Program-made: the position numbers and the translations under genes
The notes under the pieces: model-generated
The model's input: only the letters and a program-made list of their open reading frames with translations
Told to the model about the DNA's origin: nothing
Databases searched by the model: none
Virus record (IMG/VR): IMGVR_UViG_3300028577_000007
Strand: one strand, 5' to 3'
DNA: 64,000 bases
Source: an uncultured virus (IMG/VR IMGVR_UViG_3300028577_000007)
Taxonomy: Duplodnaviria; Heunggongvirae; Uroviricota; Caudoviricetes
Part shown: positions 12,046-61,746 of the stretch, piece by piece
Layout: each line of letters opens with the position of its first letter
How positions within the stretch are numbered: the first letter of the stretch is position 1

Positions 12046-12140
12046 CGCCTAGTGAGGTTTTCATCTCCTCGGTTGGGGTAACGCGGTTCGGGGGGGGACA
12101 CGGTTGCTCTCTCTCAGAAGGTGTGGGTGGGCGGGCGCGC

Positions 12141-12983
12141 TCAGACGCCGCCTGACTTCGTGATGCAGGGCGCGATGGCTTTCTGCATCTCGAAGAGGTG
12201 TTGGTCGGGCAGCATGAAGCCGAAGACTTCCGCTTCGAAGAACGCGAGCGGGATCTGCACCGCGCGAAACACCGTGCAGCTCAGGATCAGATCTTCGTTC
12301 GAGTGAAGGATCCAGGGAGCGGGTACGTGGAGGAGCCCCTGGCGCGTGTGGCGCTGGGGCATGAGCGAGAGAGCGTTGCCGGTCGCGCCTTGCGCTTGCG
12401 TCGCGCGGGCGGCCGCGAAGACATCGTCGGAGGCGAGGCCCGCGGGCGTGCCCGGGATGAGGCCGAGGTTCGGCATGGACTGGTAGGCGGAGTTCGATTT
12501 GTCGAAGGGCGGGATGGGGTTCAGCTCGTAGCGAAAGTTCCCCTGACGATTGGAGTTCGCTTGGATGTCCCAGCCTACTTGCGTCGGCAAGCGGTTGTTC
12601 TCGAGCTCGACGAAGTCTCCCGCGGCGCACCCGCTCGGGCGATAGATCGCAAAGCGCGTGTCGAGCACGACGAAGCCCATGTTCTTCGGGACGTGCACCG
12701 TACCCACCTCGAACTGACACGGCTGGTTCGGGGAGGCGGTGAAGATCCCGTCGATCGGCAGCCTGCGAAACACCGCCTCGAACGGCACGATCGAGTCGGG
12801 CTTCAGGTAGCTGCCGAGCTGGCCGCCGGCGAGCATCACGCGATCGGCCGTGCACGGCGTCATCACCCCTCCCTCGAACGGCGACGGGAAGGCGGCGCCG
12901 ATGTTCGATTGGGCGAAGTGGGGATTCGAGCGAGCGAGCTCCGCGAAGCCCGCACGCTGCTCGATACTGAAAGGCCGGGTCAT
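12141..12983 (-). CDS. Beta-rich putative capsid-associated protein
   Basis: 280 aa, no TM, alternating hydrophobic strands; co-transcribed with putative MCP. Confidence 0.5.
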   Translation of the reverse strand: MTRPFSIEQRAGFAELARSNPHFAQSNIGAAFPSPFEGGVMTPCTADRVMLAGGQLGSYLKPDSIVPFEAVFRRLPIDGIFTASPNQPCQFEVGTVHVPKNMGFVVLDTRFAIYRPSGCAAGDFVELENNRLPTQVGWDIQANSNRQGNFRYELNPIPPFDKSNSAYQSMPNLGLIPGTPAGLASDDVFAAARATQAQGATGNALSLMPQRHTRQGLLHVPAPWILHSNEDLILSCTVFRAVQIPLAFFEAEVFGFMLPDQHLFEMQKAIAPCITKSGGV

Positions 12984-15783: not shown

Positions 15784-17886
15784 TCAGCCGAAGACCCCTT
15801 GACCGCCGTCGGTCTGGAGGATGCCGGCCGGCACCATCTCGGTCGCGCTCTGAGGAGCAGAGATCGAGCGGGTTCCTGCCCAGATTTGCCCGTTCGAGGA
15901 GCCTGGGATCCAGGTGCTGGAGGTCGGCAGAGTCGACACGTCACCGAAGCCGGCAGCGGCCTCGTACGACGGGAGGGCTCCAACGCCCGCCGCCGCTTCC
16001 GCGATGGTGAGCTCGCGATCGAGATCGCCGTGCGGATCGACGTGGTTCGTGTTCGTGGCCTCACGCGCGCCCATACCGGCCGCTGCCTCAGCGAAATCCG
16101 GGTTCGCCCCGTACCCCGCTGCAGCTTCGTACGCTGGGAGCGATCCGAGCCCATTCACGCCGCTCGAGAAGTACTCGCCGAGCCCGTTCACGCCCGAGGA
16201 GAAGTACTCTCCAAGGCCGTTCACGCCGCTCGAGAAGTACTCACCCATGCCGCGCCCGATGGACTGGTACCGCGGCTGGAGCGAGGTGCCCGCGCCGAGA
16301 CCGTACATCGCGCTCAGGCGTGCGGCCGTGCCGTCACCCGCCAGCATGTCGACATGCGTTGGCGCAAACTTCATGAGCGCCGCCGTGAGCAAGGAGGTCG
16401 CGAAGCTGACCGCGATGCCGGTCATGACGGTGTTTCGGGTGCCCGGATCCTTGATGAGCTTCGCCGAGGCGAAGACACCGAGGCCCGCGACGAGGCCCGC
16501 GCCGATGAGCTTCTGGTAGGCCGGATCGAGATTGATCAGACCGAGACCCGAAGTCGCAGGCGCGACCACCGCTGCCGTCGTGGGGCTCGTCTGGACGACC
16601 GTTGCCGGCGCCCCGAAGATCTTGCCCATGACGTTGTTCACGAGGAGGTTCGTCAGCACCTTGTGGCCGACGAAGCCGAGGAGCGCGATGCCGCCCGTCT
16701 TCCCAATGAATATCAGCGTGTCGCCGATGCCGTTCTTCCGGAACATCCGGCGACCGTTCCGGCGGTGCCGGCGACGGTTCGAGGACATCCGACGACGCGA
16801 ACGACGCTTGTTCGGGCTCAGACGAGCTCGCGATCGACGCCGACGATTACTCGACAGGCGACGACGGCTCGAGCGCCGACGACGATTCGGGCGAAGCTTC
16901 GCTACCGCACGACGGCGGCGTCGAGCCGCGACGGCCGACTTCTTCCTCGACAACTTCCTTCGCTTGCCGCCCGCTCGGCGCTTCTTCGACGAACGACGAC
17001 GCTTTCGCTTCGGCGCGACCGCGGAGGCCTTCCGGCGGCTCTTGCGGCGCTTCTTCTTCGAGAACGAAGTCGGCGCGTAGCGCTTCTTCCGGGTACGCCA
17101 GCCACGCTTGGCGCCGATGCTCGTGCCCTTGTTGCGGCGCAGCCGACGGCGGCGACGATTGGCTTTCAGCACGGTCTTCTTCGCGCGACGACGCTTCCGC
17201 TTCGGCGCGGCGGTCTTCTTCGCGACCCGACGACGACGCTTGACCGTGCGGCGCTTGGCCACACGCTTCCTCGGTGCGGAGCGCCGAGCGCTCTTCTTGC
17301 GGCGGACTTTTCGACGAGCCATGGTGCTTTTCCTTGTCACTTTCTTGGGCGCCTTCGCTCGGCGCCGAGATGTCGGGGCTTTCGCCTTCTTCTTCTTTTT
17401 CGGCTTGGACTTCGATCGGGCTCGGGTGGCCGAAGCCCCCCACGGATCTCGATGACGAGAGGCCGCTCGTTCCCAGCGGCGCTCTTGCGACGGGGAGGCC
17501 AGCACCAGAGAAGCGTGCCGGACCTCGTTTCTCCGCATGCGGCGCACGACGTAGCCCGAAGACGCGCGCTTCACGCGGCGAGCATTCTTGTGGAGGCTCT
17601 GCCCCTTGCCCTTCGCGGCCCGCATCCTCTTCGCGAACGCGCGCTTCTTCGCGTCCGACAGACTCGAGCGAGCGGCGGCGGGGCGGCGGTTCGCGGAGAG
17701 CCCGCTCATCGTGCGGCGCGCCGACCGGTAGCTACCCCGGCCATTGATGGCCGCGATGTGCGTCACGCCCCCGTTGGCCGCGAAGCGCGGGCCGTTCCGG
17801 CGGTGCGCGCGGGAGCTCGGGGGCCGGGTATAGCCGTACGCCTTTACAGCGTTCTTTTTGATGCGGTATGCGCGCCCAATAGCCAT
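15784..17886 (-). CDS. 700-aa Arg/Lys-rich (protamine-like) core protein fused to TM helices and a GLG-repeat tail
   Basis: About 380-aa very basic N-part punctuated by hydrophobic-x-x-N; three or four hydrophobic helices; (GLGEYFSSGVN) repeats; AAAG(Y/M/V/F)G repeats. Confidence 0.8.
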   Translation of the reverse strand: MAIGRAYRIKKNAVKAYGYTRPPSSRAHRRNGPRFAANGGVTHIAAINGRGSYRSARRTMSGLSANRRPAAARSSLSDAKKRAFAKRMRAAKGKGQSLHKNARRVKRASSGYVVRRMRRNEVRHASLVLASPSQERRWERAASRHRDPWGASATRARSKSKPKKKKKAKAPTSRRRAKAPKKVTRKSTMARRKVRRKKSARRSAPRKRVAKRRTVKRRRRVAKKTAAPKRKRRRAKKTVLKANRRRRRLRRNKGTSIGAKRGWRTRKKRYAPTSFSKKKRRKSRRKASAVAPKRKRRRSSKKRRAGGKRRKLSRKKSAVAARRRRRAVAKLRPNRRRRSSRRRLSSNRRRRSRARLSPNKRRSRRRMSSNRRRHRRNGRRMFRKNGIGDTLIFIGKTGGIALLGFVGHKVLTNLLVNNVMGKIFGAPATVVQTSPTTAAVVAPATSGLGLINLDPAYQKLIGAGLVAGLGVFASAKLIKDPGTRNTVMTGIAVSFATSLLTAALMKFAPTHVDMLAGDGTAARLSAMYGLGAGTSLQPRYQSIGRGMGEYFSSGVNGLGEYFSSGVNGLGEYFSSGVNGLGSLPAYEAAAGYGANPDFAEAAAGMGAREATNTNHVDPHGDLDRELTIAEAAAGVGALPSYEAAAGFGDVSTLPTSSTWIPGSSNGQIWAGTRSISAPQSATEMVPAGILQTDGGQGVFG
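16148..16250. repeat. 33-nt tandem repeat x3 encoding G(L/M)GEYFSSGVN
   Basis: Three copies of ttcacgcc(gctc/cgag)gagaagtactc. Confidence 0.85.
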
Positions 17887-18055: not shown

Positions 18056-18529
18056 CTATTTCCGCACGACGAGGTAGGCGACGAGGCAGCAGGCACCGAT
18101 CGCGAAGTAGGCGTTCGGCTTGGGCATGCGTGCGCGCCGTTGATCCAAGATGCCCTGCACCACTCGACCGGGCTCGGCGCGCTGCTGGGCGTTCACGGAA
18201 GATTGCGTGAGGACGAGCGTCGGGTTTACCTGCGGGAACGGCGGATACGACGTGTCGCCCGCTGGCGGGTAGGGCGCGAGCGGAGTCGCGCTCCAGGCGG
18301 GGCGAAGCTTGGAGAGCGCGATCACGTAGGACGCCATCGACTTCTCGTAAGTCACTTGGGTCTGAGCGGTCGCGATGATCTGACTCATGGCGTCCGCGAT
18401 CGTCGCAGGCGGCGGTGCGCTCTGCGCGGACGTAAGCGGTACCGATCGCGCTGGGATGATGGCGGACGCTTGGTTTGCGACGGGCGAGGGAGCCGCGGGA
18501 CCGAGTGAGCGAGTGATCGCTTGCGTCAT
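18056..18529 (-). CDS. Tail-anchored putative virion protein
   Basis: Pro-rich; ends AYFAIGACCLVAYLVVRK. Confidence 0.65.
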   Translation of the reverse strand: MTQAITRSLGPAAPSPVANQASAIIPARSVPLTSAQSAPPPATIADAMSQIIATAQTQVTYEKSMASYVIALSKLRPAWSATPLAPYPPAGDTSYPPFPQVNPTLVLTQSSVNAQQRAEPGRVVQGILDQRRARMPKPNAYFAIGACCLVAYLVVRK

Positions 18530-22452: not shown

Positions 22453-23358
22453 CTACGCGGCCTCTTTTTTGGTGAGCAAGTTTTTGATCAGGTATGGGGC
22501 CGCCAAGTAGAGCGCGTAGATCGCGACCCCGCCGATCGCGTAGGGCACGAGGGCCGTCAACGTGTCTTTGATGGCATTCGGGATGGCGGTCCCGGCGTTC
22601 TTGTTCGGGTCGGTGAGCGTCGCAATGCACTGCTGGGTCGTGGCCGCGTCGCCGGACGCCTGCGCCTTGGTGCAGATTTGCGCGACGGTCGCGTTCTTTT
22701 TCGAGAGATCGATGACCGACACCAGCACCCAGGCGATGCACGCCACGATAGCGATCGTGACCACGACGGCGGCGACCAAAAGCGCGGGCGCAATCCCAAG
22801 CCCGCTTGCTGGAGCCGCGGGGGTTCCTGGCGCCTGGGACTCATCGATCCCGAGCGCCTTGTAGAGCCCGAGCGTCCGCAGCATCACGAGCGCATTCATG
22901 GTGCCGACCGCGACGTTCGCGTGGGCGGCGATTTCCGCGTCCGACATGCCCGAGTGGTGGATCGTCTCGTCCGAGTGGAGAAGGAAGGCGTAGTCGGCCG
23001 CCTGATAGGCATGGCTCACGAGGTAGCGGATCGCTTCACGGCTGAGCCCGACCTGGAGCTGCATCAAGTCGGCGTTCGGGAGACCGACGAGCGGGAGCAC
23101 GCTCGAGGCGATCGACTGCAGCAGGGATTCGTTCAGGGAATAGGCCTGCTGGTTGCCCGCCAGATCGGTGCCCACGTCGAAGGTCATCCCGCCGACGTTC
23201 GCGATCATCGCGCTCAGAGCGGGCGCCATGTAGTTGTCGATGTAGTCCCGATCCCAGACGGATCCTCGCCCGGAGGCCGCGAGCGTTGCCCAGTCGATGC
23301 CCTTGAGCCCGAATTTCGTGACGGCGAGCTCAGCGAGGTCGTAGACCGATGCGATCAC
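22453..23358 (-). CDS. Membrane protein with two TM segments (ASGLG)
   Basis: 301 aa; TM helices flank a Cys pair. Confidence 0.65.
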   Translation of the reverse strand: MIASVYDLAELAVTKFGLKGIDWATLAASGRGSVWDRDYIDNYMAPALSAMIANVGGMTFDVGTDLAGNQQAYSLNESLLQSIASSVLPLVGLPNADLMQLQVGLSREAIRYLVSHAYQAADYAFLLHSDETIHHSGMSDAEIAAHANVAVGTMNALVMLRTLGLYKALGIDESQAPGTPAAPASGLGIAPALLVAAVVVTIAIVACIAWVLVSVIDLSKKNATVAQICTKAQASGDAATTQQCIATLTDPNKNAGTAIPNAIKDTLTALVPYAIGGVAIYALYLAAPYLIKNLLTKKEAA

Positions 23359-25702: not shown

Positions 25703-26455
25703 TTAGCCTCGGCGCTTCTTGATGTAGTAGACGGCTCCGACTGCGAGCAGTCCGCCGCCCAGGAACCCGAGCACCTTTTTGGTGTTCGAGGAAAGGATCG
25801 GGAGCGAGCTCGTGACGGGCGTCATCGCGGCTGTCGTCGGCTTCGATGCCGTGGGGACCGCGGGACCCGTGCCGCAGCCGGCGCTCGATTGGTTCGGGAA
25901 CTTCGTGTCCTGGCACGTCGTCGGGTAGCTGACGGGAGCGCCTGGGTCGAGGCCGCCCACGCTGAGCACGGCGCCGCACGTCGCGGGACCGAGTTTCCCG
26001 TCGGCGATGATCGGGCAGAAGCCGTACTTCAAGAGCTTCTGGTTCAGGGAGTTTTGGATCTGCAGCGTCTGCGCGCTGTATTTGCCGTAGGGGTAGTTCG
26101 CCTGATCGGAGGCGGTCGCCGTGATGTCGCCGAGGGTCTTGGCTTGCGGCGATCCGAGCGACGGCGCGCCCGAGAGGTTTCCGTCGAAGACGCCGCCGCC
26201 GTAGCCGCCCGGACGAAAGATCCCGTCGCCGACATCGGTTGCTTGGTCATTGCCGAGGCCGGAGTATCCGCCCGGCGGTCTGTCTGGGATCATGTCGATG
26301 TCTCGCGGTGGGAGGAAGACGGTGCTCGTCTGCTGGATCTGAGGGAACTTAAACGCAGGGCGCGACCAGATCCCTCCATGGAAGCGCGTGGGGTAGGGGT
26401 TCACGTGCATGGTGAAGGGCGTCGGGACGCCAGCGGGGTATCCGGGGCCTTTCAC
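25703..26455 (-). CDS. Tail-anchored protein with one peptidoglycan-binding-like repeat
   Basis: GTG start 26455; YSGLG; IIADGKLGPATCGA; TM plus KKRR. Confidence 0.7.
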   Translation of the reverse strand: MKGPGYPAGVPTPFTMHVNPYPTRFHGGIWSRPAFKFPQIQQTSTVFLPPRDIDMIPDRPPGGYSGLGNDQATDVGDGIFRPGGYGGGVFDGNLSGAPSLGSPQAKTLGDITATASDQANYPYGKYSAQTLQIQNSLNQKLLKYGFCPIIADGKLGPATCGAVLSVGGLDPGAPVSYPTTCQDTKFPNQSSAGCGTGPAVPTASKPTTAAMTPVTSSLPILSSNTKKVLGFLGGGLLAVGAVYYIKKRRG

Positions 26456-27009
26456 TTGTGCTCCAGCGCGATGATGGCCTCGATGCCGAGCCCGAACGGT
26501 CCCCCAAGGAGCCCCGCCGCGACGCCCCACCAGGCGTATTTCGATTCCTTGTCGCGGCTCGGCGCGACGGCCTTGCCGACGTAGTACGAGCCGACGCCAG
26601 TGAGCACGAGCCCGACCGCGACCGCTGCCACGAGGAGCCCGCTCGCTCCGGCGACCGCGGTGCCGGTCTGCACGCCAGCAGGCGTCGCTGGCGCGGGCGC
26701 CGCGTCGTCACCGAGCCCGCTCATGGCGCGGAAGCCTCGGATGAGCGGCGAGCCCGAGAGCACGCGACCGAGGACGCCGTTGTTCATGGCGGAGGGAGTC
26801 GGCATCTGGTAGAGGCGCGAGTAAGCCCCGATGCCGTCAGGGGACGCGCCGAGCGGCGCGAGCGGGTAAGCCGCGGGGTTATATTGAGGGGGAGGCGCGG
26901 CGCCGTAGCCCGCGTTCGCCTGCACGAGCGTGTCGTGCCGCGCCGGAAACTGTTGCCCCTGGCTCACGACGGCCGGGGCCGAATCTTCATCGTCAGTGTA
27001 GTCGAACAT
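26452..27009 (-). CDS. Membrane protein (MSGLG) with two C-terminal TM helices
   Basis: 185 aa; Pro/Tyr-rich N-part before MSGLGDD. Confidence 0.65.
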   Translation of the reverse strand: MFDYTDDEDSAPAVVSQGQQFPARHDTLVQANAGYGAAPPPQYNPAAYPLAPLGASPDGIGAYSRLYQMPTPSAMNNGVLGRVLSGSPLIRGFRAMSGLGDDAAPAPATPAGVQTGTAVAGASGLLVAAVAVGLVLTGVGSYYVGKAVAPSRDKESKYAWWGVAAGLLGGPFGLGIEAIIALEHK

Positions 27010-27013
27010 CTTC

Positions 27014-27697
27014 TTACTTCTTCTTTCCGAAGAGCGCCCAGAGGGCGCCTGCTGCGGCGCCGACGAGGATCACCTTGCCGACGAGAGCTGCGGTGTTCGT
27101 GGGGACGGGAGCCGGCGCGTCGCCGAAGCCACCGATCCCCGCGATCGATTGCGGGTCCTGCATCCAGTCGGCGATGTTCACGCCGGGCATGGGAGCTGCC
27201 TCCTGCCAGCGCACGACGTTCTGGGGCGTCGAGTAGCGGCCCTGCTCGATGTAGGCGATCTGCGCCGCAGAATCGAGGCTGACCGCGCCCGAGGGGACCG
27301 CGATGACGCGGCGCCCGGTCGTGGCGTCCACGACCTCGGTCTTCGAGAACGGCACCTCGCGCGCGTGGTAGCCAGGGAGCGAGTAGCGCGCGGCCATGAT
27401 GCCCGCGTCGGGGTGAATGTTCGGGTGGGTGCCGGGCGGATCAAAGACGCCGTTGCCCTGCACGTCGTCCATCTCGGCGTAGACTTCGAGCTCGTTCTTG
27501 GCCCAGCCAGGATCGGCCGATTCGTCGGACACGTCGATACCGAGACCGGCGAGCCTTCGTCCGTAGCGCCGGTCGAAGGGGGCCTCGTAGTGCGGCGCGA
27601 GGTTACTCGTGTAGCGCGTGTCGCTCGGACCGACCTCGACCATCGACGGGAGATCGCCCGTGTAGGGCTGTGACGGGTAGTTCGGGTAGGAAGGCAT
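27014..27697 (-). CDS. Tail-anchored protein (LAGLG, IAGIG)
   Basis: 227 aa; ends GALWALFGKKK. Confidence 0.7.
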   Translation of the reverse strand: MPSYPNYPSQPYTGDLPSMVEVGPSDTRYTSNLAPHYEAPFDRRYGRRLAGLGIDVSDESADPGWAKNELEVYAEMDDVQGNGVFDPPGTHPNIHPDAGIMAARYSLPGYHAREVPFSKTEVVDATTGRRVIAVPSGAVSLDSAAQIAYIEQGRYSTPQNVVRWQEAAPMPGVNIADWMQDPQSIAGIGGFGDAPAPVPTNTAALVGKVILVGAAAGALWALFGKKK

Positions 27698-28893: not shown

Positions 28894-29706
28894 TTAGGCG
28901 GCCGCTTTCGGTTTCTTGAGCGTGCGGTAGAGGGCGTAGCCGCCAGCGGCGAGCACGACGACGATGAGTCCGTTCGAGAGAAGCCCGCCGCTCTTCGTGG
29001 AGCTCGCGGCAGGAGGCGGAGCGCTCGGGGTGGGATCAGACGGGATACTCTGAGGGGCCGTGTTCAGGACGGGAGGAGCGCTCGATGCCGCCGGCGGCGT
29101 GGGCGGCATGGGCTCGGGGCGAAGCGGCGCGGGCGGCGCCACCGCGAACGTGAGCGGAGTCGGCGGGAGCGGCTTCGGTCGAAGCGCGGGCGGGAGCGGT
29201 AGATCGGCGAAGCACACCGGCAAGAGCGCGAGCGCGCAAGCGGACCCCGTGGGATCTGCGCCGAGGCCTTTCACCGGCGCCGATAGGTAGCTGCACGTCG
29301 CAGCCCAGGCATTGTGCTGCGCCTGCGAGACGCAGCCAGCGTAACCCGCAGGAGTGACTGCTCCCGCGGCGCGCGCTTGCGCGTTGGCCGCATCGAGCGC
29401 GCGTTGATTCACGAGCTGCTGACGCTGACGCGCAACGATCGCGCCAGCGTACGCCGCGTAGTCGATGTTCCATTGCGCGAGATCTGCTTGATAGGCAGCC
29501 GTCGCAGCGGCGTTGGTCGACGACACGCCCGCGCTCTGCGCTGCATAGGCCTGCACCGCCTTGTCGTGCGCGGCTTTTTCCTGCAGCCACTGATCGTGGT
29601 TCTCGTGGTACGCCTGCACCGCAGCGTCGTACGCCGCGTCACCCAAGCCACGGAGCGCGTAGCGCCCGAGGCCCGCAATCTTTCCTGAATAGGCCTGGAC
29701 GTACAT
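28894..29706 (-). CDS. Tail-anchored helical/Pro-rich protein (three GLG motifs)
   Basis: Start ATG 29706; IAGLG, LRGLG, VKGLG; TM plus KKPK. Confidence 0.7.
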   Translation of the reverse strand: MYVQAYSGKIAGLGRYALRGLGDAAYDAAVQAYHENHDQWLQEKAAHDKAVQAYAAQSAGVSSTNAAATAAYQADLAQWNIDYAAYAGAIVARQRQQLVNQRALDAANAQARAAGAVTPAGYAGCVSQAQHNAWAATCSYLSAPVKGLGADPTGSACALALLPVCFADLPLPPALRPKPLPPTPLTFAVAPPAPLRPEPMPPTPPAASSAPPVLNTAPQSIPSDPTPSAPPPAASSTKSGGLLSNGLIVVVLAAGGYALYRTLKKPKAAA

Positions 29707-30239
29707 CAGTCGATTCTCCAAATCTTGTAAGTCGTCACGCGCTTCAGCATCGACGCCTCGTCGGTGCCAGCGACCGGATCGCAGATGATCCACTGGCCGC
29801 TCTTCGGCTCGAGCACACGCGCGAACACGTGCGCGAACGAATTGGGGCGGCCGAAGCCCACCGTCACGTATTCGATCTCGCGACCGAGCTGTCTCGAGAG
29901 CGTACCAATGAGGAGCGCGATCTCGTCGCAGTCCGCGACCGCTCGACCCTGCTGCACGATCTCTTGCGCCATGCGCTCGGGGTCCTGCACCTGCTCGACG
30001 GCTAGAGCGTCGTTCGAGTACTTGACCTTTTCCGCGACGAAATTTCGGACAGCCAAGATCTCCGAGAGGTAGTCCTTGGGGGCAACGTCCCTCACGATAT
30101 GGTCCTTCAGCGACCGCACGAGCGTCGATTGCTCACCCCTCGGTCCAACCGTCATGCTCACCATGAGCGAAATGGTGTCCCCCGGGCCGCGAAATGGCCG
30201 GATCGTGGTCGGTTGCGTGGAAGCGATGGCAGCGGGCAT
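29706..30239 (-). CDS. Transglutaminase-like (Cys-His-Asp) protease, candidate virion maturation protease
   Basis: ADCDEIALL (Cys), AHVFARV (His), WIICDP (Asp); first gene of the virion operon. Confidence 0.78.
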   Translation of the reverse strand: MPAAIASTQPTTIRPFRGPGDTISLMVSMTVGPRGEQSTLVRSLKDHIVRDVAPKDYLSEILAVRNFVAEKVKYSNDALAVEQVQDPERMAQEIVQQGRAVADCDEIALLIGTLSRQLGREIEYVTVGFGRPNSFAHVFARVLEPKSGQWIICDPVAGTDEASMLKRVTTYKIWRID

Positions 30240-30300: not shown

Positions 30301-30336
30301 AGCCTACCTGCTAGGGGCTAGCTCTCGCAACTTTTC
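30301..30336 (-). promoter_or_regulatory. Sigma70-like promoter of virion operon (GAAAAG TTGCGA-N18-TAGGCT)
   Basis: -35 at 30325-30330, -10 at 30301-30306; tctcgcaacttttc is identical to 8630-8643. Confidence 0.65.
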
Positions 30337-30526
30337 GGGGCTGCGGCGCGAGCGGCGCGGTAGCGCTCAAAACCCCGGAGGCGCTCGCAGTAGCAGAAAA
30401 GATGCCCTATTGGCACCGTGACCGACCAGTCTAAGCCGATGAGCGAGGCCCCGGGAGGTCGCGCTATTGGCGCCTCTCGCAAACCGTGCTCTAAGTAGAC
30501 GGGATCGTTCTCTGACAACTGAACCA
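30331..30526 (+). promoter_or_regulatory. CRISPR leader 1
   Basis: Homologous to about 59793-59983; repeat-proximal ~55 nt nearly identical; GCGAGCG/CGCTCGC inverted motifs. Confidence 0.85.
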
Positions 30527-31441
30527 GTGCAAAGGGAGCCCGGGCCCGATGGAAGCCGGGACAACGAATTTATGGCCTGGCTCGGCGTGCGGCGCTGGCG
30601 TGCAAAGGGAGCCCGGGCCCGATGGAAGCCGGGACTGTAGCAACCCGACCGCTGCCGCCGTGTCTCCGATTGGTGCAAAGGGAGCCCGGGCCCGATGGAA
30701 GCCGGGACTTGTGGCGCTGGTAGCTGCCCCACGCTCGGCGGGAAGTGCAAAGGGAGCCCGGGCCCGATGGAAGCCGGGACCGATCGGCGACCGACGCTGC
30801 CACCAGTCGAGCGCAAGTGCAAAGGGAGCCCGGGCCCGATGGAAGCCGGGACGCGATTGCAGCCGCGAGCTCGTGCCGATCCGTCTGCTGTGCAAAGGGA
30901 GCCCGGGCCCGATGGAAGCCGGGACCACAGCAACGCCGCCATCGAAGTTTCGGTGACTCATTGTGCAAAGGGAGCCCGGGCCCGATGGAAGCCGGGACGA
31001 CGTTCCCAACCGAAGGGCGCACCTTCGCGTTCCAGCAAGTGCAAAGGGAGCCCGGGCCCGATGGAAGCCGGGACCCACGCTATTGCCGCGCCCCACGTCT
31101 CTCACCGTTCCATGTGCAAAGGGAGCCCGGGCCCGATGGAAGCCGGGACTTGCGCGATGCGCGCCGGTTCACCCGCCCACCCGAGTGCAAAGGGAGCCCG
31201 GGCCCGATGGAAGCCGGGACATCACCCCGGCGATGGCCAAGGGGGGCTGGGACGTGCCGGTGCAAAGGGAGCCCGGGCCCGATGGAAGCCGGGACGATCT
31301 TGTGCAGCTGGCGCTGGCACAGCCAGGTTTGGTGCAAAGGGAGCCCGGGCCCGATGGAAACCGGGACGAGTCGTTGCTAGCCGCCGGGCAGACCCAAGCC
31401 ACGCTGTGCAAAGGGAGCCCGGACCCGATGGAAGCCGGGAC
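30527..31441 (+). CRISPR. CRISPR array 1: 13 repeats, 12 spacers (35-40 nt), no adjacent cas genes
   Basis: Repeat GTGCAAAGGGAGCCCGGGCCCGATGGAAGCCGGGAC; last two copies carry single changes, marking the trailer end. Confidence 0.97.
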
Positions 31442-31452: not shown

Positions 31453-34161
31453 TTACCCTGCGACCTTTTTCTTCAACTCATCGAACAGCGCTCGCAAGTA
31501 CTTCTTACCGTCTCGCCGCAGAAACGGCGAGCTCGGATCTCCCGTGCGGGTGATCGCCAAGATCACGCGCTCTGGATCCATGTTTTGAACTAGCCCCGTC
31601 ACCTGCTCGCGCCCGAGCTCCGCGAACATGTGCTCGGCGACGAACGCCGGTGAGACGCCTGCCGTGTACTGCGGGAGCAGCACCTGCTCGGCCTGCAAGA
31701 TCTGGCGGTCGACCGCGGTGTCCGCCGGATCGACGCTAGCCGCTGCGACCGGAGGCGAGGACGGCGGCGCGACCTGAATCTGAGTCGGCGGCGGAGGCGG
31801 GACCGATGGGCGCATCTGGGGCTCGGGCGGCATCCCCGTGTGCCCCGGGAACGGCGCGGGCGCCATCGACACCTGACTCTCGTAGATCGGCGCCGGCATC
31901 GGCAGCGGCTCAGGAGAAGGCTGAAACGCGGGCGCCTGCTGCTGCTGGTACAACGCGGGAGAAATCGGCTCTCCCGACGGGCCCATCGGCATAGGCGAGA
32001 CCTCGGACATGTGTCGAGGGACGTAGCCCCCCGGAGCGCCGAGCGCCGGCGCGCGCCGGCGCGCGTGCGGGGGCGGGAGCTGGAGTCCCTGACCCGCTTG
32101 ATCGACCATGTCTTGTCGACCCTGGAGCCGCGCCTGCTGCAGTTCCTGCGCGCTTCTCGCCTTGAACATCCCGCCAATGTTTTCGATGATGGCGGGGAGA
32201 TTCTGGACGACGCCCATGCCCGTCTTCATCAGCATCTGCGGCACGGTCTCGGGCTCGGTAGGAGACTCCCCGGCCTCCACCATGCCGAGCTCGGCTGCGT
32301 CCTCTTTCAGCTTCCGCATGCGCCCGACTACGTCTTTACCGCTCTCGGCCTCTTGCTTCCAGCGATCGACCTCGGAGAGCGTGCGCTTGACTTCACCGCG
32401 AGCAGTCTCGAGCCGCATGTCGTAGCTGTTCTTGAGGGAGTCGAGCGCCATCGCGTGCTGGGCCTTCAGCGCGTTCATGTCGCGCTCGTGATTGCGCGCC
32501 TCGGCGGTCATCGCGGCCGAGTGCTGAGCCGTGAGCATCGCGACCGCGTCGGTGTGCTGGCGGTGCATGTCGTTCACTCGGCGGTCGGCTTCTTCTTTGA
32601 TGCGGCTCACCTCCCGATCGCTGCGATCTCGGATCTCGCGCTCGGAGTCGGCCGCGCGCTTTTCGATTTCTCGGATGCGCTCGGCGACGCGACCCGCGGC
32701 CTCTTCGATGCGCAGATCTGCGCGCTTCTGCTCTTCCCGTACTCGATCCGCGGCGCGCTCGGTGTCGGCCTTAGCGGAGGCTTGCACCCGCTCGAGCTCG
32801 CGCGCGTGTTGCTCGCGGAGCATCTCGGAATTGTCAGGCTTACTGATGATGGTCGAGAGGCGATGGAGCTTCTCGAGATCGTCGGGCTGCTTTTTTTCTT
32901 CTAGCAACGCCTTGATTCGCTCTTCGCTCGCGCGTCGCTCGGACGCGAACCGCTCTTCCCATTTGGCGTCGTTCGCGCGGCGCTCTTCGGCGATCTCGCG
33001 CTCGCGCTGGACCTGAGCCTCACGGAGATCCGCTTCGCGTTCCGCGGCCTTGTCCTGAAGCTCCATGAATTTGCCGAGCAGATCAGACTCGGCGCGAGCC
33101 TTCTCTTTCAGAGCTGCCTCAGCGCGACTGCGTTCGCGATCGACTTGAGTCTCTTGCCGGATCTCGCGCGCTGCGTCGACCGAGAGGCGTTCTTTTTCGA
33201 TCTGCGCGTCCGCCATCGAAGCCGGGCCCCGGCGACCTGCGAGGTTTGGAAAATTGGGAGATGCCGTCATAGGGTCCTCGACATTGTAATCTTCACTTTC
33301 GGAACTGGGAACGCCCGGAAACACGACCGTGATGGGCTCGGTCATCTTGACCGCAGCGACACGGCCATCTGCTTGCATCACGCCGCCGCGCTTGGGTGGA
33401 CCGTACACCGTGAGCTTGTAGGTGCCGCCCCCGTAGATGTCCTGCCAATCAGCAAGCGTTAGGGGGCTCGTGATGGGGCGCTGGTAGCCGGCGACCTTGC
33501 GGCCCAAGTATATCTTCGGCTCTTTGCGATCGACCAGGATCCACCAATTCACGCCGTCGAGCAGCGGGAACAAGCTGAACAAGTCGAACAGCGTCGTTGG
33601 CTGACCCTTGCCAGCCAAGAAATCATCGGGGGCATCCTCGAGCCCCACGACAGGGCTCACCGTAAGCGTGCCCGGACGCTTGGCGGCGTCGGCCTCAGGA
33701 TGAGGGACCGCCACTGCGCCGTCGGTCATGATTTCGATCCGGCGGGCCATCTCGTCGACCTTCGCTTGCGCGGCAGCGTTCGCGGCAGCGTCAGCCTTCG
33801 CCTGCGCGGCGGCGCGGGCGGCGGCGTCGGTCTCCGCTTGCGCGGCGGCGGCGTCCGCGTCGGCCTCGGCGGTCATGACTTCGATCCGGTTGGCCATGCC
33901 GATCGGCGACTCGGTCGGCTCGGTGGAGGCCCCGAGCTTACGAATGAAGTCGACGTTCTCCTGGATCGCCAAGGCCACCTCGGGCTCGAGGTGCTTTCTG
34001 GCAACCTCGTCGAGAGAACGAGGGCTCTCCTCGTCGACACGAGCCACCCGAGTCAGTCTCTCCCCCCCATGATCGATCGTGTGGGACAAGTCCGGCACGA
34101 GGCGACGCTTGCGCCGAGATTCATCGCTCGGAGGCTGGGGGGGAGAGACGGGATCGGTCAT
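31453..34161 (-). CDS. 902-aa coiled-coil protein with Pro-rich C-terminal region
   Basis: Long E/R/A heptad region; YGGGTYKL domain; Pro-rich linker. Confidence 0.75.
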   Translation of the reverse strand: MTDPVSPPQPPSDESRRKRRLVPDLSHTIDHGGERLTRVARVDEESPRSLDEVARKHLEPEVALAIQENVDFIRKLGASTEPTESPIGMANRIEVMTAEADADAAAAQAETDAAARAAAQAKADAAANAAAQAKVDEMARRIEIMTDGAVAVPHPEADAAKRPGTLTVSPVVGLEDAPDDFLAGKGQPTTLFDLFSLFPLLDGVNWWILVDRKEPKIYLGRKVAGYQRPITSPLTLADWQDIYGGGTYKLTVYGPPKRGGVMQADGRVAAVKMTEPITVVFPGVPSSESEDYNVEDPMTASPNFPNLAGRRGPASMADAQIEKERLSVDAAREIRQETQVDRERSRAEAALKEKARAESDLLGKFMELQDKAAEREADLREAQVQREREIAEERRANDAKWEERFASERRASEERIKALLEEKKQPDDLEKLHRLSTIISKPDNSEMLREQHARELERVQASAKADTERAADRVREEQKRADLRIEEAAGRVAERIREIEKRAADSEREIRDRSDREVSRIKEEADRRVNDMHRQHTDAVAMLTAQHSAAMTAEARNHERDMNALKAQHAMALDSLKNSYDMRLETARGEVKRTLSEVDRWKQEAESGKDVVGRMRKLKEDAAELGMVEAGESPTEPETVPQMLMKTGMGVVQNLPAIIENIGGMFKARSAQELQQARLQGRQDMVDQAGQGLQLPPPHARRRAPALGAPGGYVPRHMSEVSPMPMGPSGEPISPALYQQQQAPAFQPSPEPLPMPAPIYESQVSMAPAPFPGHTGMPPEPQMRPSVPPPPPTQIQVAPPSSPPVAAASVDPADTAVDRQILQAEQVLLPQYTAGVSPAFVAEHMFAELGREQVTGLVQNMDPERVILAITRTGDPSSPFLRRDGKKYLRALFDELKKKVAG

Positions 34162-40055: not shown

Positions 40056-42770
40056 TCACCGATCCCAGTAGCTGTCTTCCGGAACATTGTCCGCCACGTC
40101 ATCAAACTCTTCATAGCCCCGAGCAATCGGCCTGAAGCTGATCGTCGGGCCATCGAAGATGAGCTTCACGGTGCCGGTTGCGCCGCCGCGCTGTTTAGCG
40201 ACGATGATCTCGGCCTGGTCGTCCGCGTCCTTGTTGTAATACTTCTCGCGGTAGATAAACCAGACCGCGTCGGAGTCATTTTCAATGGCGCCCGAATTAT
40301 GGAGGCACATATTCTGGGCGACGAAGTTTTCTGCCCCTGGGACGCTCAGGTCAAACGTCTCCTCTTCTCCGTCGGGGACAACCGACTCCACCTGATCCCA
40401 CAGCACGTCACTTTCGGCGAGCTCACGAAGCGAAGTCGAGCCGAGAGTCGCCGCCACCTTAGCGAGGTTCGGGCGACTGATGTGTTTACCTTGGTGCACC
40501 CAACCGAGCGAGCGGTAGGTATGCCCTTGCCGAGTCTTCTCCGCTCGGATCAGTTCATTGACCGCGAGTGGCAACCGATCGAACCCCGGCTTCTCTCGCA
40601 CCATCGGCTCTATCGCTGCCCGGCGGAGCTTCTCTCCTTTGATACCGAGCATCGGAACACGCTCCGCAAATCTACGGATCATGAGTTGATCGTGGATCGT
40701 AATCGTCGCGATCGGGACCTTCGACTTCGTGTTGAACTCGGCCGGGCCATGACCCGCAACGATGCCGAGGCGGGTCAGTATCCACATCACCTGGTCCAGT
40801 AGCTGGAAGCTTGTCGACGTGAACTTCAGCGCCCACCCGGACCTCTTTCTTTTCACCACCGATCCGTCTCCTGCCCACAGGGCCCCGAGGAAGTGACCGA
40901 GTGCGTTATTGTCCATCCTGAGGACTTCCTCCGGAATGGTTTTTTCAGGGCCATTCTGATCGTGGATCCCAAGCTCTTTCAGCCATAAGATGACGGGGTT
41001 CTGGCCGCGGCGCCCTCTGCCCCTGGTCACCGTCAACTCGATCTGCTCGGAATCTCCCTGGCACTTGTGATCTTTGGCGGTGATCCCGAAGCGCGAGAGC
41101 GCAATGCGTCGTACGTTGTTCACGAGCGCAGGATCCGCCTTGACGTACCCAACCGAGCGGTACCGGGTGTAGGTTCCGTCTGAAATCAGGTACCCGAGCA
41201 GAGCGAGTTCGTCGGGGGTAAACCTGCGACTCGGCTCGGTGGGCTCCGGGACCACTCTCGGGACCGCGATCCTTTCGTGCGGCTCAAGATCCGCCAAGGT
41301 CTTCCACCCCTCAAGCACTCTCACTCGGTGCTCGCCTGCCGCGCGGAGCGTTCGGCCGGTGCCCGTGGTCAACTTGAAGATCTTTTTCTTCCCCGTGCTC
41401 CATGCGCTAGCCGAGACGGCGGGGTGGAGCTTCCAGTCGTCGCCCAAGGCGGACACGATGGTGCCTTCCTTGAGATCTCGGATCTGCACCCTCGCGCCCG
41501 TCCTCGCGTCATAGACCCATTGGTCACCTGCCAAGCATTCGCGCAGGTTAGCAAGCGAAGGCCTCCTGTCGGTCGCTGAGCTCGAGCCCTTCTCCTTTTC
41601 TCGGTTCACCTGCGAGAGTCCCAAGATACAAAGCCCCTCGCTCTTGGCAAGTTGCTTTAGGCCGCGGGTGATGGAGGAGATCTCGAGCTCGCGGCCTCCG
41701 CCCTGCTCGCCCGTCATGAGCTGCATGTAGTCGACGGCGGCGAGTACGAGCTTCTTCGCCTTGATCGTGCCGCGCGTGATGTCGCGCTTGATCTTCCTGA
41801 TGATCGAGCGCAGCTCGGTCACGGTGAGCGCGGCCTTGTCGCCGATGAGGATCGGGTGTTTCAAGAGCTCGTCTGCTGCCCGGAACAGCTCCCGCCACTG
41901 CATCTCGGTCAGCTGGTTCTGACGGAGGCGCGCGTACTCGATGGAGGCCTGCACGCAGACGAGCCGAAGGGAGATCTCTTCCTTCGGCATCTCGAGTGAA
42001 TGGAAATACACGGCATCTGGAAGGCTCCCGTCGGCAGGCGGCTTCGTCGTGCGGAGCAGGCTCGAGCCTGCGAGCGCGGTCTTGCCTTGCCCGGTCCGGG
42101 CGGCGAGCGTCACGAGGTGCCCAGGCTGATAGCCCCCCGTCATCTTGTCGAGATCGGCGTAGCCAGTGGTCGCGCCAATCGTTTGACCAGTGCGGAAGGC
42201 GTGAGCGAGCTCGGCGAGCCCCCGACCACCGATGGCCCCAGCGAGCTCGTAGGTCGCTTCCCGCTCATCGTGAGCGACCTCCCAGACGCGGGTCTCGTGC
42301 TCTTCGATGACATCGCGAGACGGGACGCCCTTCGGGTGGTAGAGCGCCGCGATCGTGGTCTGGCTGAGCGCGATGACCTGGCGCGCGCGCCAGTGCTGGA
42401 TGACCGTTCGGCAGTACTGCTCGAGAAGCCCCGGCTTACCTTCGACGGGGCCGAGGTCAGTGAGGCGCGCGAGGTAGGAGCTCCCGACTTGTTCGAGGAG
42501 CCCGCGCAAGCGAAGGTCGCCTGCGACCTCGACGAGATCGATGTACTGCTTCGACTCGCTGAGGTTACAAATCGCTTCCCAGATCTGGCGATTCGGAGCG
42601 GCGTAGAAGTGGCTCGCCTCAAGCCCGATCGCGACGCAGCGGTCGTAGTCACCCGGCTCGAGAATGACCCACGCAAGGATCGCACCCTCGGCGTCGAGAT
42701 CCGACGGAGGGACGTTCCCGGGGTTAATGTGAGTCGGATCCGGGAGCCGGTTTGCGTCGATCGCTGTCAA
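40056..42770 (-). CDS. dnaB: Replicative DNA helicase DnaB with intein
   Basis: AARTGQGKT, SLEM, VDYMQL, LSQVNR, LRE|...|SGAIENDSD, KQRGG. Confidence 0.95.
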   Translation of the reverse strand: MTAIDANRLPDPTHINPGNVPPSDLDAEGAILAWVILEPGDYDRCVAIGLEASHFYAAPNRQIWEAICNLSESKQYIDLVEVAGDLRLRGLLEQVGSSYLARLTDLGPVEGKPGLLEQYCRTVIQHWRARQVIALSQTTIAALYHPKGVPSRDVIEEHETRVWEVAHDEREATYELAGAIGGRGLAELAHAFRTGQTIGATTGYADLDKMTGGYQPGHLVTLAARTGQGKTALAGSSLLRTTKPPADGSLPDAVYFHSLEMPKEEISLRLVCVQASIEYARLRQNQLTEMQWRELFRAADELLKHPILIGDKAALTVTELRSIIRKIKRDITRGTIKAKKLVLAAVDYMQLMTGEQGGGRELEISSITRGLKQLAKSEGLCILGLSQVNREKEKGSSSATDRRPSLANLRECLAGDQWVYDARTGARVQIRDLKEGTIVSALGDDWKLHPAVSASAWSTGKKKIFKLTTGTGRTLRAAGEHRVRVLEGWKTLADLEPHERIAVPRVVPEPTEPSRRFTPDELALLGYLISDGTYTRYRSVGYVKADPALVNNVRRIALSRFGITAKDHKCQGDSEQIELTVTRGRGRRGQNPVILWLKELGIHDQNGPEKTIPEEVLRMDNNALGHFLGALWAGDGSVVKRKRSGWALKFTSTSFQLLDQVMWILTRLGIVAGHGPAEFNTKSKVPIATITIHDQLMIRRFAERVPMLGIKGEKLRRAAIEPMVREKPGFDRLPLAVNELIRAEKTRQGHTYRSLGWVHQGKHISRPNLAKVAATLGSTSLRELAESDVLWDQVESVVPDGEEETFDLSVPGAENFVAQNMCLHNSGAIENDSDAVWFIYREKYYNKDADDQAEIIVAKQRGGATGTVKLIFDGPTISFRPIARGYEEFDDVADNVPEDSYWDR
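40296..41537 (-). mobile_element. Intein (414 aa) with LAGLIDADG endonuclease in DnaB
   Basis: Starts CLAGDQ, ends LHN followed by Ser; LLGYLISDG and FLGALWAGDG motifs. Confidence 0.93.
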
Positions 42771-43762: not shown

Positions 43763-44302
43763 TCACCGGAACTCCACCACTGCCGCCGCGTCCGGTTGAT
43801 AGAGCGGGTGCACGGGGGAGCCGTCCAGGTTTTTCCTGAAGCACTCGAGGAGGTATCCGTGCGACCGAAGAGCGCTAAGGACCTGCTGCCCGCGACCCAG
43901 GATGTCACCCTCTTTGCCCCAAGCGACCACGATCTGACCCGCCCCGGCGGCCGCCGCGAGGATGTGATGGTCGTTCTCCGGGCCAATGAGATCGGTCCGC
44001 GCTGCCAGCGAACGGAGCCTCTTCGAGTCCGTCTCGCGGTACGCGAACAAGTTAACCACGGAGAGGCGCTGGTGGCCCCATGCGCGCCCGAACTTCATCA
44101 GCTTATCGATCGTCGGGTCGTTGGCGTTCTCGTCGGCGGTGGAGGGGTTCAGCATGACGAAGCAGATCGTGCTGCGGTCACCCTCGGCGTCCCAAGCTTG
44201 TCCGTCGAGTGAGCGGTAGAGCACGTAGCGGTAGACGCGATCGGCACTGAGGACAGCGTGGTTGATCTTCGTGAGCCACGAGAACGTTTGCTGCACCATC
44301 AT
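43763..44302 (-). CDS. DUF1643-like protein (in frame with, possibly fused to, the MTase C-part)
   Basis: YRYVLYR, FVMLNPSTAD...DPT, VVNLFA, VVAWG, PVHPLY. Confidence 0.8.
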   Translation of the reverse strand: MMVQQTFSWLTKINHAVLSADRVYRYVLYRSLDGQAWDAEGDRSTICFVMLNPSTADENANDPTIDKLMKFGRAWGHQRLSVVNLFAYRETDSKRLRSLAARTDLIGPENDHHILAAAAGAGQIVVAWGKEGDILGRGQQVLSALRSHGYLLECFRKNLDGSPVHPLYQPDAAAVVEFR

Positions 44303-44937
44303 GGGCTGGTCTTCTTTGGTTGGAGGGTCTCGCTCGATGAGCTCTCGGATGAGGTAGCCGATGACTTCGGCGCACGGCGGGACGACGGCGTTGCCGAGCG
44401 CGCGAATGCGGGCCCGTCGTCTACGTCCAACCAAACCGCCGGAAATCCCATGAACCAGAGGCACCACTCCGGGTTTAGGTGCCCGCCAAGAGTGCCCGGC
44501 AAGTCTCTCCCGCCGTTCTTGCCGTCGATGGTCAAGGTCGGAAGAAGCCCCCGCTTCGCCATCGTCTCGAGACTCGGCTTCCCTTTCAGGTTGAACTCCG
44601 TCTCCCCGTCGCGAGTCCCGTTGTTGCCCGTCCCGTAGCCCGCTGCCGACAAGGTCGGGAGGAGCTCTTCTTGCGACCACGAAGATTCTTCTTCGCTCGT
44701 GAGGAGCGCCGACATCACTTGCTGACAGCGGGACCGGAAGGCAAGCATAGCCGAGCTGTTCCAGATCACTGATGACGAAGTCGACCCAGCGGTTTGCTCC
44801 TGAGGCGACGTTCTCGACGACGATCCATTCGGGGAGGACTTCGCCCACAATCCGTCTAAACTCACGCCACAGGCCTGAGCGCTCTCCAGCAAGGCCCGCG
44901 CCCTTACCCGCGCCGGACACATCTTGGCATGGCTCAC
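44299..44937 (-). CDS. Overlapping-frame beta polypeptide of C5-MTase (motif IX)
   Basis: [16 protein letters not shown] in an alternative frame inside alpha, as in M.EcoHK31I; start uncertain. Confidence 0.7.
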
Positions 44938-45203
44938 GGGAACCCCCCGCAGATCAGATCTACCGCAGGAAGCTCCCAGCTGCCCTCCTTGCTGGACGCG
45001 GCCCCGGCTCTGCCCAAGACAAGCTTCACGTCCGTGAAGCGCTGAGCCTCTGGCCAATGATGCTTGAGCACACACAAGCAGAATGGGTCCTGCTCTACCT
45101 GCCAGATCGTCCGACCGAGGCCCGCCTCTTCGAGGCCGAGATCGAGACCGCCGATCCCGCTGAAGAGCGAGCCGATCCGGAACGACGTTTTAAGCTCGGA
45201 CAT
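44303..45203 (-). pseudogene. C5-cytosine methyltransferase alpha chain interrupted at catalytic motif IV
   Basis: SLFSGIGG...GGFP-TGA at 44934-44936; [23 protein letters not shown] continues in another frame (7 extra nt). Confidence 0.75.
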
Positions 45204-59184: not shown

Positions 59185-59787
59185 ATGGACCTGAACGCAG
59201 CTATTTTCACCTCGCTCATGAGAATGTCGCCGCACAAGACGGACACGGAGACGCGCCCCGAGCGCGAGATCCGGATGCACATCGTGGCCGACGCCATCCA
59301 TGACGCAACGCTTCGCGCTGCCTGCCAGGGGCGCTTCGCGGACGCGGTTTGCAAACCCATCTACTCCGACCGACGCACGCTCGCGGCGCTGCTCCTCGGC
59401 AAAGGTCACTTCGAGTCGAACTTCGCGGAGTACGTCCACACAGGCCATTGCGAACAGGGCCCCCCAGGGGCTCGTTGCGACTCAGATCGAAACGGCGTCC
59501 CGCGCGCTCACGGCCCTTGGCAACAATGGGAGCTCTCGGTCTTTCCTCGGGAGGACTGGGTGGCCATGCACGCTGCGACGCCAGAGGCGACGGGGCTTGC
59601 GGCCTGGCATGCGGCGCGGCTCCTGGCGGGGTCTCGGTCGATGTGCAAAGCCGCCTTCGGAGGCGACGAGATCCAGGCTGCCATCGCGGGCTTCGCGGGC
59701 AGCTGCACCATGGGCATGAGCCCGAAGAAGATCGCGTTTCAGGCGGCAACGGTCAGGAAGATCTTGGCCGCGCTGCCGGCCGAGTAG
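59185..59787 (+). CDS. Lysozyme/lytic-transglycosylase-like protein
   Basis: AALLLGKGHFESNF...RAHGPWQ resembles SLT ES and G..Q motifs. Confidence 0.6.
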   Translation: MDLNAAIFTSLMRMSPHKTDTETRPEREIRMHIVADAIHDATLRAACQGRFADAVCKPIYSDRRTLAALLLGKGHFESNFAEYVHTGHCEQGPPGARCDSDRNGVPRAHGPWQQWELSVFPREDWVAMHAATPEATGLAAWHAARLLAGSRSMCKAAFGGDEIQAAIAGFAGSCTMGMSPKKIAFQAATVRKILAALPAE

Positions 59788-59792
59788 GGAGC

Positions 59793-59983
59793 TTTTCGGA
59801 AAGCGCGAGCGGCGCGGTAGCGCCAAAACCCCCGGAGGCGCTCGCAGCAGCAGAAAAGATGCCCGATCGGCTCTGGCTACCGACCAACCGAGGGTAGTGG
59901 CGAGGTCTCCGAGAGGAGGCGCGTTGGCGCCTCTCGCAAACCGTGCTCTAAGTAGGCGGGATCGTTCTCTGACAACTGAACCT
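59793..59983 (+). promoter_or_regulatory. CRISPR leader 2
   Basis: Homologous to 30331-30526. Confidence 0.85.
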
Positions 59984-61739: not shown

Positions 61740-61746
61740 CCTGGCT

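Follow-up and report, generated by a model that had tools for sequence, protein, structure and literature searches.

Two remote CRISPR arrays of an uncultured phage and their probable relation to a phage-encoded type V-M system

A 64,000-nt stretch of DNA from an uncultured virus (IMG/VR record IMGVR_UViG_3300028577_000007), a phage from soil, was analyzed; the whole stretch is called the window below. It is 64 kb of high-GC DNA (58–69% GC per 2 kb) with most genes on the minus strand, and it contains two CRISPR arrays, each preceded by a leader. A preliminary description regarded them as cas-less arrays that hijack the interference machinery of the host. The results below point to another affiliation. 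The two arrays are probably extra, remote arrays of a type V-M (Cas12m-like) CRISPR system encoded by the phage itself.

Two CRISPR Arrays with Homologous Leaders

The repeat, GTGCAAAGGGAGCCCGGGCCCGATGGAAGCCGGGAC, is 36 nt long. A search of the plus strand allowing up to 3 mismatches detected 35 copies, and 100 shuffled sequences, used as the control, gave none. In array 1 (30527–31441, plus strand), 13 repeats, each 36 nt long, enclose 12 spacers of 35–40 nt. Only 11 nt separate its end from the stop codon of a convergent gene for a protein of 902 amino acids (aa). Array 2 (59984–61690, plus strand) consists of 23 full repeats, one truncated repeat, and 23 spacers of 35–41 nt. The search recovered 22 repeats of array 2 at 59984–61551; repeat 23, at 61589–61625, has an extra G, and the truncated repeat 24 is located at 61664–61690.

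Across both arrays, 25 of 37 repeats are exact. As stated in the preliminary description, mutations fall at the trailer end: every changed copy is located at the right-hand end of its array. The last two repeats of array 1 have one change each. In array 2, repeats 1–14 are exact and the changes pile up toward the trailer. This decay fits polarised growth at some time. The mean GC content of the spacers is 0.64 (34 of the 35 spacers), similar to that of the window. No spacer is common to both arrays, and the longest match between any two spacers is 13 nt.

The leaders of array 1 (30331–30526, plus strand) and array 2 (59792–59983, plus strand) can be aligned with each other. They are homologous over ~195 nt, from CTTTTCGG (30331 and 59792, respectively) up to the first repeat. 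Both show a conserved distal block, a diverged middle part, and a proximal core; the distal block and the ~60-nt proximal core are nearly identical. About 55 nt of the proximal core are also common to the leader of a related phage, G806, described below. Thus, the two arrays with 12 and 23 spacers, the single 36-nt repeat, the homologous leaders, and the lack of common spacers are all confirmed. The junctions of the arrays with their flanks were seen in independent assemblies, and contigs covering the flanks in four sequencing runs showed no differences.

Each leader contains a terminator-like hairpin with a T-run on the minus strand, in the same conserved place (30401–30417 and 59863–59887). 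These hairpins could stop antisense read-through from neighbouring minus-strand genes. No sigma-70-like site was found by a promoter scan of the two leaders. Rfam detected no family at the gathering score and no CRISPR direct-repeat family in the whole window, and a match to the raiA-hairpin around leader 1 (E-value 3.1) was judged to be due to chance. The boundary motifs AACTTTYSG and CTTTTCGG were not enriched. A literature search for the repeat sequence gave no match.

Searches for cas Genes and for Related Arrays

The exact 29-nt core of the repeat was found at two loci of the metagenome collection, here called L001 and L002. Both represent the phage itself, being 99.9% and 100% identical to the window, respectively. 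L002 corresponds to 60537–64000 of the window and continues for 7,190 nt beyond it.

There was no match to this core in the viral collection, nor any in 185,579 species genomes, where the search for the repeat that had been proposed earlier gave no host array. A looser repeat pattern hit 10 loci in the species genomes, each with a single chance match and none with an array. A mismatch-tolerant pattern was absent from 401 and 401 genomes of two phyla and from five single genomes. In the viral collection, a repeat-junction pattern had two chance matches, neither of them an array, and the two leader blocks had no match. No array with the repeat of the window was seen outside the phage in the collections searched.

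The earlier finding of no recognizable cas gene in the 64 kb also holds. No Cas family was detected by Pfam in 77 open reading frames (ORFs) of the window and 20 ORFs of the L002 extension, by PADLOC in 85 ORFs, or by NCBIfam in 102 ORFs (94 of the window plus 8 of the 7-kb L002 extension). A tblastn search with the Cas12m-like proteins described below found no copy in the window or in L002, and the best E-value against the window was 0.006.

The Phage Family and Its Complete Relative G806

The preliminary description took the element to be viral. Judging from its sequence, it is a phage, because it shows PHROG matches and colinearity with a complete phage record with terminal repeats. This record, G806, is 135,429 bp long with direct terminal repeats, and CheckV estimates it at 100%. 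In tblastn, 68 of the 87 window ORFs (a number that includes three spurious frames over the arrays) match G806 colinearly. Positions 1–64000 of the window correspond to ~135,000–67,900 of G806 in the reverse orientation.

Homologues of a conserved membrane protein encoded in the window (22453–23358, minus strand) are located on contigs of 125.9–136.3 kb. The window is about half of a ~127-kb genome, because its exact membrane protein sits on a contig of 127,411 nt. The family is thus composed of phages of ~125–136 kb.

G806 has an array at 25,755–27,409, with 23 repeats and 22 spacers. On the transcribed strand its repeat is GTGTGGAGGCAGCTCGGCGCCGACGGAAGCCGGGAC, whose last 12 nt are identical to those of the window repeat. 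The array starts 69 nt after the stop codon of a 488-aa gene, P0060, and these 69 nt hold the leader core. No match to Cas1 or Cas2 was found in the six-frame translation of G806. In the half that is not syntenic to the window, Pfam detected no adaptation family and no class 1 Cas family among 98 ORFs; the ORF-by-ORF scan for Cas1 and Cas2 covered this half, and the syntenic half was covered by the six-frame search only.

Two units of the G806 array, s15 and s22 (L017, 6297–6340 and 5791–5828), are near-duplicates of 44 and 38 nt with a faint resemblance to the leader core. The repeat variants of G806 are grouped in blocks. The G806 array has the look of several arrays fused together.

In the half beyond the window, G806 encodes a HigB-like toxin domain, a tyrosine-integrase-family protein, a sigma-70-like factor, and a response-regulator receiver (L016, at G806 1839–2165 and 11841–12857; L017, 15513–16184; L018, 10182–10574). 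The phage family may be temperate.

The Cas12m-like Effector

The protein P0060 matches a Cas12m chain in the PDB (23vw_A, "CRISPR-associated DNA-binding protein Cas12m") with an E-value of 3.8e-36. In PADLOC it matches Cas12f (2.4e-49) and Cas12u1 (5.2e-48), and in Pfam there is a weak match to PF07282. We found 86 homologues. They include proteins on contigs of 135,548, 135,306, 126,165, 136,303, and 131,781 nt, as for the membrane marker protein.

One homologue, P0088 (520 aa), is an orthologue that shares 61% identity with P0060 and was not found within the window. Nine contigs carry the exact P0088 sequence, the longest of them being 127,411 nt. The window phage very probably encodes P0088 in its other half, because the longest contig with P0088 and the longest contig with the window's own membrane protein are both 127,411 nt; this link is strong but indirect. 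The preliminary description had named a cas operon on the same replicon outside the window as an observation that would speak against its interpretation. A cas gene on the replicon is indicated in this indirect way, while none was detected in the adjoining 7 kb.

The AlphaFold model of P0088 has a predicted local distance difference test (pLDDT) value of 90 and a predicted template modeling (pTM) score of 0.82. The closest structures are those of Cas12m (8hhl, 8hhm, 8hio, and 8pm4; E-values 2e-18 to 1e-15; template modeling scores 0.55–0.64). Structures of Cas12f and TnpB rank next. The alignment at the sequence level to the solved Cas12m chains spans residues 178–483 only.

Among 54 family members, the first position of the RuvC site is Asn (N280) in at least 90%, and the second is Glu (E421) in at least 90%. 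D504 and D506 are invariant. The zinc ribbon is also conserved, with C480, C496, and C499 invariant and C477 present in at least 90%. Asn at the first RuvC position fits an impaired nuclease, and the effector is probably non-cutting. The effectors of the family are 474–520 aa long (matches of at least 56% identity with full coverage), compared with 577–614 aa in the solved Cas12m chains.

Repeat Structure

An H-type pseudoknot can be formed by the repeats of both the window and G806. Stem 1 pairs positions 8–10 with 19–21, and stem 2 pairs 13–17 with 30–34. After stem 2, only AC remains before the spacer, and there is no 8-nt tag outside the stem. Standard pairs fill every one of the 152 cells scored for 19 distinct variants of the repeat. 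Three of the eight pairs show changes on both sides: 10–19 (CG, GC, or UG), 14–33 (UA, CG, or UG), and 16–31 (GC, GU, or AU). If the partner is slid by 1–3 columns, pairing falls to 49% or less, and none of 500 shuffles reached the observed covariation score. In a single-repeat fold, the stem was no better than in shuffled sequences (z 0.48).

The CRISPR RNA (crRNA) repeats of Go and Ap Cas12m start with GUG, contain a stem, and end with GCGAC (PMC11013384, supplement rows 512 and 515). The repeats of the window thus seem to keep a Cas12m-like pseudoknot through compensatory changes. Cas12m is described as working with no trans-activating crRNA (tracrRNA), with T- or C-rich protospacer adjacent motifs (PAMs; 5'-TTN for Go), and with interference only at essential genes or origins (PMC11013384). 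A scan of the window for anti-repeat duplexes gave no outstanding candidate: the leaders reached −34.5 against a mean of −27 (standard deviation 5.2), and the best scores were in coding DNA.

The preliminary description considered the repeat and spacer lengths to fit a type III or I-G-like system. This assignment is not supported, as no class 1 Cas family was detected in the window, L002, or the non-syntenic half of G806, and the predicted stem ends 2 nt before the spacer.

Spacer Content and Self-Matching Spacers

The spacers of array 2 are the same wherever assemblies overlap, namely s1–s11 in L001 and s9–s23 in L002. These identical spacers do not bear out the active acquisition proposed earlier. 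Over 1,899 nt, only two positions distinguish L001 from the window, and both are within spacers (60258 in s4 and 60604 in s9). There is no difference in the repeats, nor in the 1,085 nt of flank and leader upstream of array 2.

Logan contigs of the sequencing runs break inside the arrays. One contig of run X2, at about one third of the phage depth, contains 31 letters not present in the window, with a repeat of the same family on either side. Other run contigs match only the distal leader block (59804–59847, 4 differences) or the last degenerate repeat (61587–61625), and have foreign flanks. The contigs with foreign flanks and the X2 spacer therefore suggest at least one further array of this repeat family in the community, possibly the cas12m-adjacent one. 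A contig of run X1, which connects the leader with 60935 and 61011 with 61591, could have arisen as an assembly-graph artefact.

Two of the 35 spacers, neighbours in array 2, match the window itself perfectly in blastn-short. Spacer s11 (60747–60787, plus strand; 41 nt) matches 17171–17211 (plus strand) at 41 of 41 positions. This protospacer lies in a 700-aa gene (15784–17886, minus strand) and has the 5' flank AGC. Spacer s12 (60824–60860, plus strand; 37 nt) matches 41609–41645 (plus strand) at 37 of 37 positions. This protospacer lies in the intein-containing DnaB helicase gene (40056–42770, minus strand) and has the 5' flank TCA. The 3' flanks of both begin with GG, and the crRNAs of both spacers would pair with the coding strand. 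L002 contains s11 and s12, and L001 contains s11. Intact protospacers for them are present in contigs of three of the four runs.

The 700-aa protein is very basic. It begins with ~380 residues of nearly pure Arg, Lys, Ser, and Ala runs, extremely rich in Arg and Lys, followed by hydrophobic segments and three exact GEYFSSGVNGL repeats. It has no family match and is 84% identical to G806 over 315 residues.

No spacer of the window matches G806. The self-matches of G806's own spacers are imperfect, one of 26/28 and one partial of 20/20 with the 5' flank CGT, and both would be coding-strand matches (18417–18444 and 80771–80790). All four self or near-self matches agree in strand, in that the crRNA would face the coding strand in each; this agreement has p = 0.06 at best and is confounded by the one-sided gene orientation.

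Among cultured phages, array 1 had no targets, and the only match of array 2 (31 nt, E-value 0.5) was judged to be due to chance. No plasmid target was found for either array, and leader 1, searched along with the first repeats and spacers, had nothing better than chance matches to plasmids (E-value 0.01 or weaker). A strand classifier, 65% accurate on known genes, called 16 of 34 spacers sense-like and 18 antisense-like, leaving out the last spacer of array 2; this result is uninformative.

Genomic Context

The cassette of array 1 is located between a gene for a transglutaminase-like protein (29706–30239, minus strand; 177 aa; Pfam PF01841), which is 86% identical at G806 109360–109890, and the gene for the 902-aa protein mentioned above (31453–34161, minus strand). 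The latter is a coiled-coil protein, not Cas-like, and 51% identical in G806. To the left of the array 2 cassette is a gene for a 200-aa protein of no family (59185–59787, plus strand), 77% identical at G806 71232–70636.

G806 has no array at either site and has small ORFs there instead. At site 1, homology to G806 stops at ~30342 and restarts at ~31462, with two small ORFs in G806 between. At site 2, one small ORF takes the place of the cassette. The arrays of the window are thus lineage-specific cassettes inserted between conserved genes and remote from cas12m, because G806 has small ORFs, not arrays, at both sites. This agrees with the insertion between viral genes given in the preliminary description.

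The window genes named by Pfam, PHROGs, and NCBIfam include those for the DnaB helicase, a DnaA-C-like protein, ThyX, a deoxynucleoside monophosphate kinase, MazG, a sliding clamp, several DNA methyltransferases and glycosyltransferases, an HNH endonuclease, and a tape-measure-type glycine-zipper protein. The 7,190-nt extension in L002 encodes collagen-like tail fibres and further glycosyltransferases. No tRNA was found in the window. The sliding clamp had no relatives in the viral collection, the clamp and ThyX had no close relative among cultured phages, and in a protein atlas a 339-aa ORF matched unnamed viral clusters only.

The intein of the DnaB helicase contains a LAGLIDADG homing-endonuclease domain (Pfam PF14890 and PF14528). 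Its gene product aligns to G806 over only 411 of 904 residues, and the G806 copy may have no intein. A cytosine-5 DNA methyltransferase (43763–45203, minus strand) appears to be divided between two ORFs, an N-terminal one of 89 aa and one of 385 aa, the latter fused to DUF1643. Either a frameshift or a natural split could account for this.

Discussion

The two arrays of the window are probably additional and remote arrays of a type V-M (Cas12m-like) CRISPR system that the phage encodes, and not orphan arrays dependent on class 1 Cas proteins of a host. The claims of a cas-less element and of hijacked host interference are not sustained, as the repeat family and the leader core belong to the cas12m-like locus in G806, and P0088 is found on a contig of 127,411 nt.

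Each array would be transcribed from its own leader. Cas12m would cut this RNA to give crRNAs that carry a handle from the repeat at the 5' side and the spacer at the 3' side. The effector, with Asn in place of the first RuvC Asp, would bind PAM-flanked matching DNA without cutting it and block transcription or replication of competing phages and plasmids. Cas12m proteins with D-E-D, H-D-D, or N-D-D sites are all reported to bind DNA without cutting (PMC11013384). Loci of the V-U type are described there without acquisition genes. In this phage family, spacer uptake would have to proceed in trans or by recombination, because G806 has no Cas1 or Cas2. New spacers could be inserted by host Cas1-Cas2 in trans at the conserved leader-repeat junction, or be exchanged by recombination between arrays. 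Self-matching spacers would persist as non-lethal, and either a binding-only effector or a site without a PAM would explain their tolerance. They would also hit identical kin.

Several points weigh against this interpretation. The effector gene is outside the window, and its presence on the same replicon is inferred from a longest contig of 127,411 nt shared by two protein clusters. Both arrays are at least 30 kb away from any cas gene, whereas the characterized V-M arrays, and that of G806, adjoin cas12m. Transcription of the arrays and DNA binding by the effector are predictions. The 5' flanks of the two self-protospacers differ (AGC and TCA), and only TCA is pyrimidine-rich like the published Cas12m PAMs. 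The pseudoknot was drawn from the same sequences on which it was scored, so the 152 of 152 pairs lean toward it, and the rows consist of two lineages and their array variants, which biases the covariation counts upward. Finally, 33 of the 35 spacers had no target in the collections searched.

One alternative gives the self-matching spacers a function. With a non-cutting Cas12m, they would act by RNA guidance to repress the helicase gene and the 700-aa gene of the phage itself, keeping the prophage quiet and excluding identical or near-identical superinfecting phages. The two matches are perfect and neighbouring, and their targets are a likely essential DnaB and a large virion-type gene. The same spacers recur in the other assemblies together with intact protospacers, all four self or near-self crRNAs would face the coding strand, and G806 has an integrase-family gene. 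For published Cas12m, moreover, interference is limited to essential genes, and a suitability for prophage silencing has been proposed (PMC11013384). This alternative is nevertheless unlikely. A pyrimidine-rich 5' flank is seen at just one of the sites, the spacers are in the middle of the array, the targets are not conserved in G806, and no window spacer matches G806. The self-matches of G806 are imperfect, and the strand agreement is confounded by gene orientation. It is likewise unlikely, though conceivable, that a temperate phage would use a nuclease-dead Cas12m with spacers copied from these two genes as an immunity repressor guided by RNA, its crRNAs both silencing the resident copy and blocking superinfection by identical kin, with new "operator" specificities written into dispersed arrays and not gained by protein evolution.

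Another alternative, about equally improbable, is that the arrays are inert copies, moved or duplicated from the cas12m locus, unused, and drifting neutrally. Their distance from any cas gene, the unchanged spacer content across the overlaps of the window, L001, and L002, the location of the only two L001 differences within spacers, the persistence of the self-matching spacers, and the eroded trailer ends would fit such copies. Neutral drift does not fit the 25 exact repeats among 37 or the fact that every variant keeps all pseudoknot pairs. Although the effectors of the lineages share only 61% identity, the leader-proximal core has been retained in them, and array 1 comes within 11 nt of the gene beside it. 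The X2 spacer absent from the window shows that array versions differ in the community.

The least likely explanation is the one closest to the preliminary description, in which orphan arrays mimic host arrays, host Cas6 and type III or type I effectors load the crRNAs, and host Cas1-Cas2 extends the arrays. It would account for the lack of a cas gene in the 64 kb and 7 kb beyond, the full and conserved leaders of both arrays, spacer lengths varying from 35 to 41 nt, antisense self-matching crRNAs with no common 5' flank motif, and a complete relative without Cas1 and Cas2, but it conflicts with the same repeat family and leader core directly behind a cas12m-like gene in G806, with a stem that reaches the spacer with only AC between and so leaves no 8-nt tag, with the finding of arrays of this repeat, in the collections searched, in the phage alone, and with the rules of type III, under which the self-targets would read as non-self (1/8 and 2/8 tag identity) and should harm the phage.

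The type V-M reading of the window arrays agrees in many respects with the characterized Cas12m systems (MmCas12m2 and GoCas12m; PMC10442227 and PMC11013384). Their one effector is small, derived from TnpB, and non-canonical in its RuvC site; they are found on mobile elements and are described without adaptation genes or a tracrRNA. Their 36-nt repeats share the GUG start, the stem with a (G)AC end, and the pseudoknot handle. Solved Cas12m structures are the best matches of the phage-family effector in both sequence and fold. In contrast, the phage-family effectors are 474–520 aa long with an N-E-D RuvC site, while the published ones are 577–614 aa long with D-E-D, H-D-D, or N-D-D. The window also differs in its two separate leader-array cassettes at least 30 kb from a cas gene and in its two perfect self-matches.

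Viral mini-arrays (PMC6858448) are similarly intergenic and preceded by a leader, vary in position between related viruses, and have a presumed role in inter-element conflict. They are described with 1–2 spacers, use of host Cas through host-identical repeats, and mutations of the carrier loci against self-targeting, whereas the window has 12 and 23 spacers, a family-encoded effector, no host array found, and two perfect self-matches. The larger size relative to mini-arrays, noted in the preliminary description, is evident from these counts and from the median of six repeats in huge-phage CRISPR loci (PMC7162821). The latter resemble the system proposed here in having phage-encoded class 2 effectors without Cas1, Cas2, and Cas4 and arrays that target other phages. 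However, their arrays are reported near the effector in genomes of >200 kb, while the window phage is ~127 kb with longer, remote arrays. Plasmids with type IV-A3 (bioRxiv 10.1101/2023.06.23.546257) are also mobile elements without an adaptation module, non-cutting, and reliant on the Cas1-Cas2 of another system. Their effector, as described, is a class 1 multi-subunit complex, unlike Cas12m, and for the window phage acquisition in trans is a proposal.

These results indicate that calling viral arrays cas-less on the basis of half a genome can lead to error, and that comparison with a syntenic relative can resolve the matter. They define a family of ~125–136-kb, high-GC environmental phages with small (474–520 aa) N-E-D Cas12m-like proteins, which are of interest as compact programmable DNA binders. 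What is most likely new relative to known V-M systems is the small N-E-D effectors, the remote leader-plus-array cassettes, and the perfect self-spacers. Arrays of one system would be dispersed over the phage genome as separate leader-plus-array cassettes. Natural, perfect self-spacers against essential phage genes in a binding-only system would make it testable whether such spacers are tolerated or serve self-regulation and the exclusion of kin.

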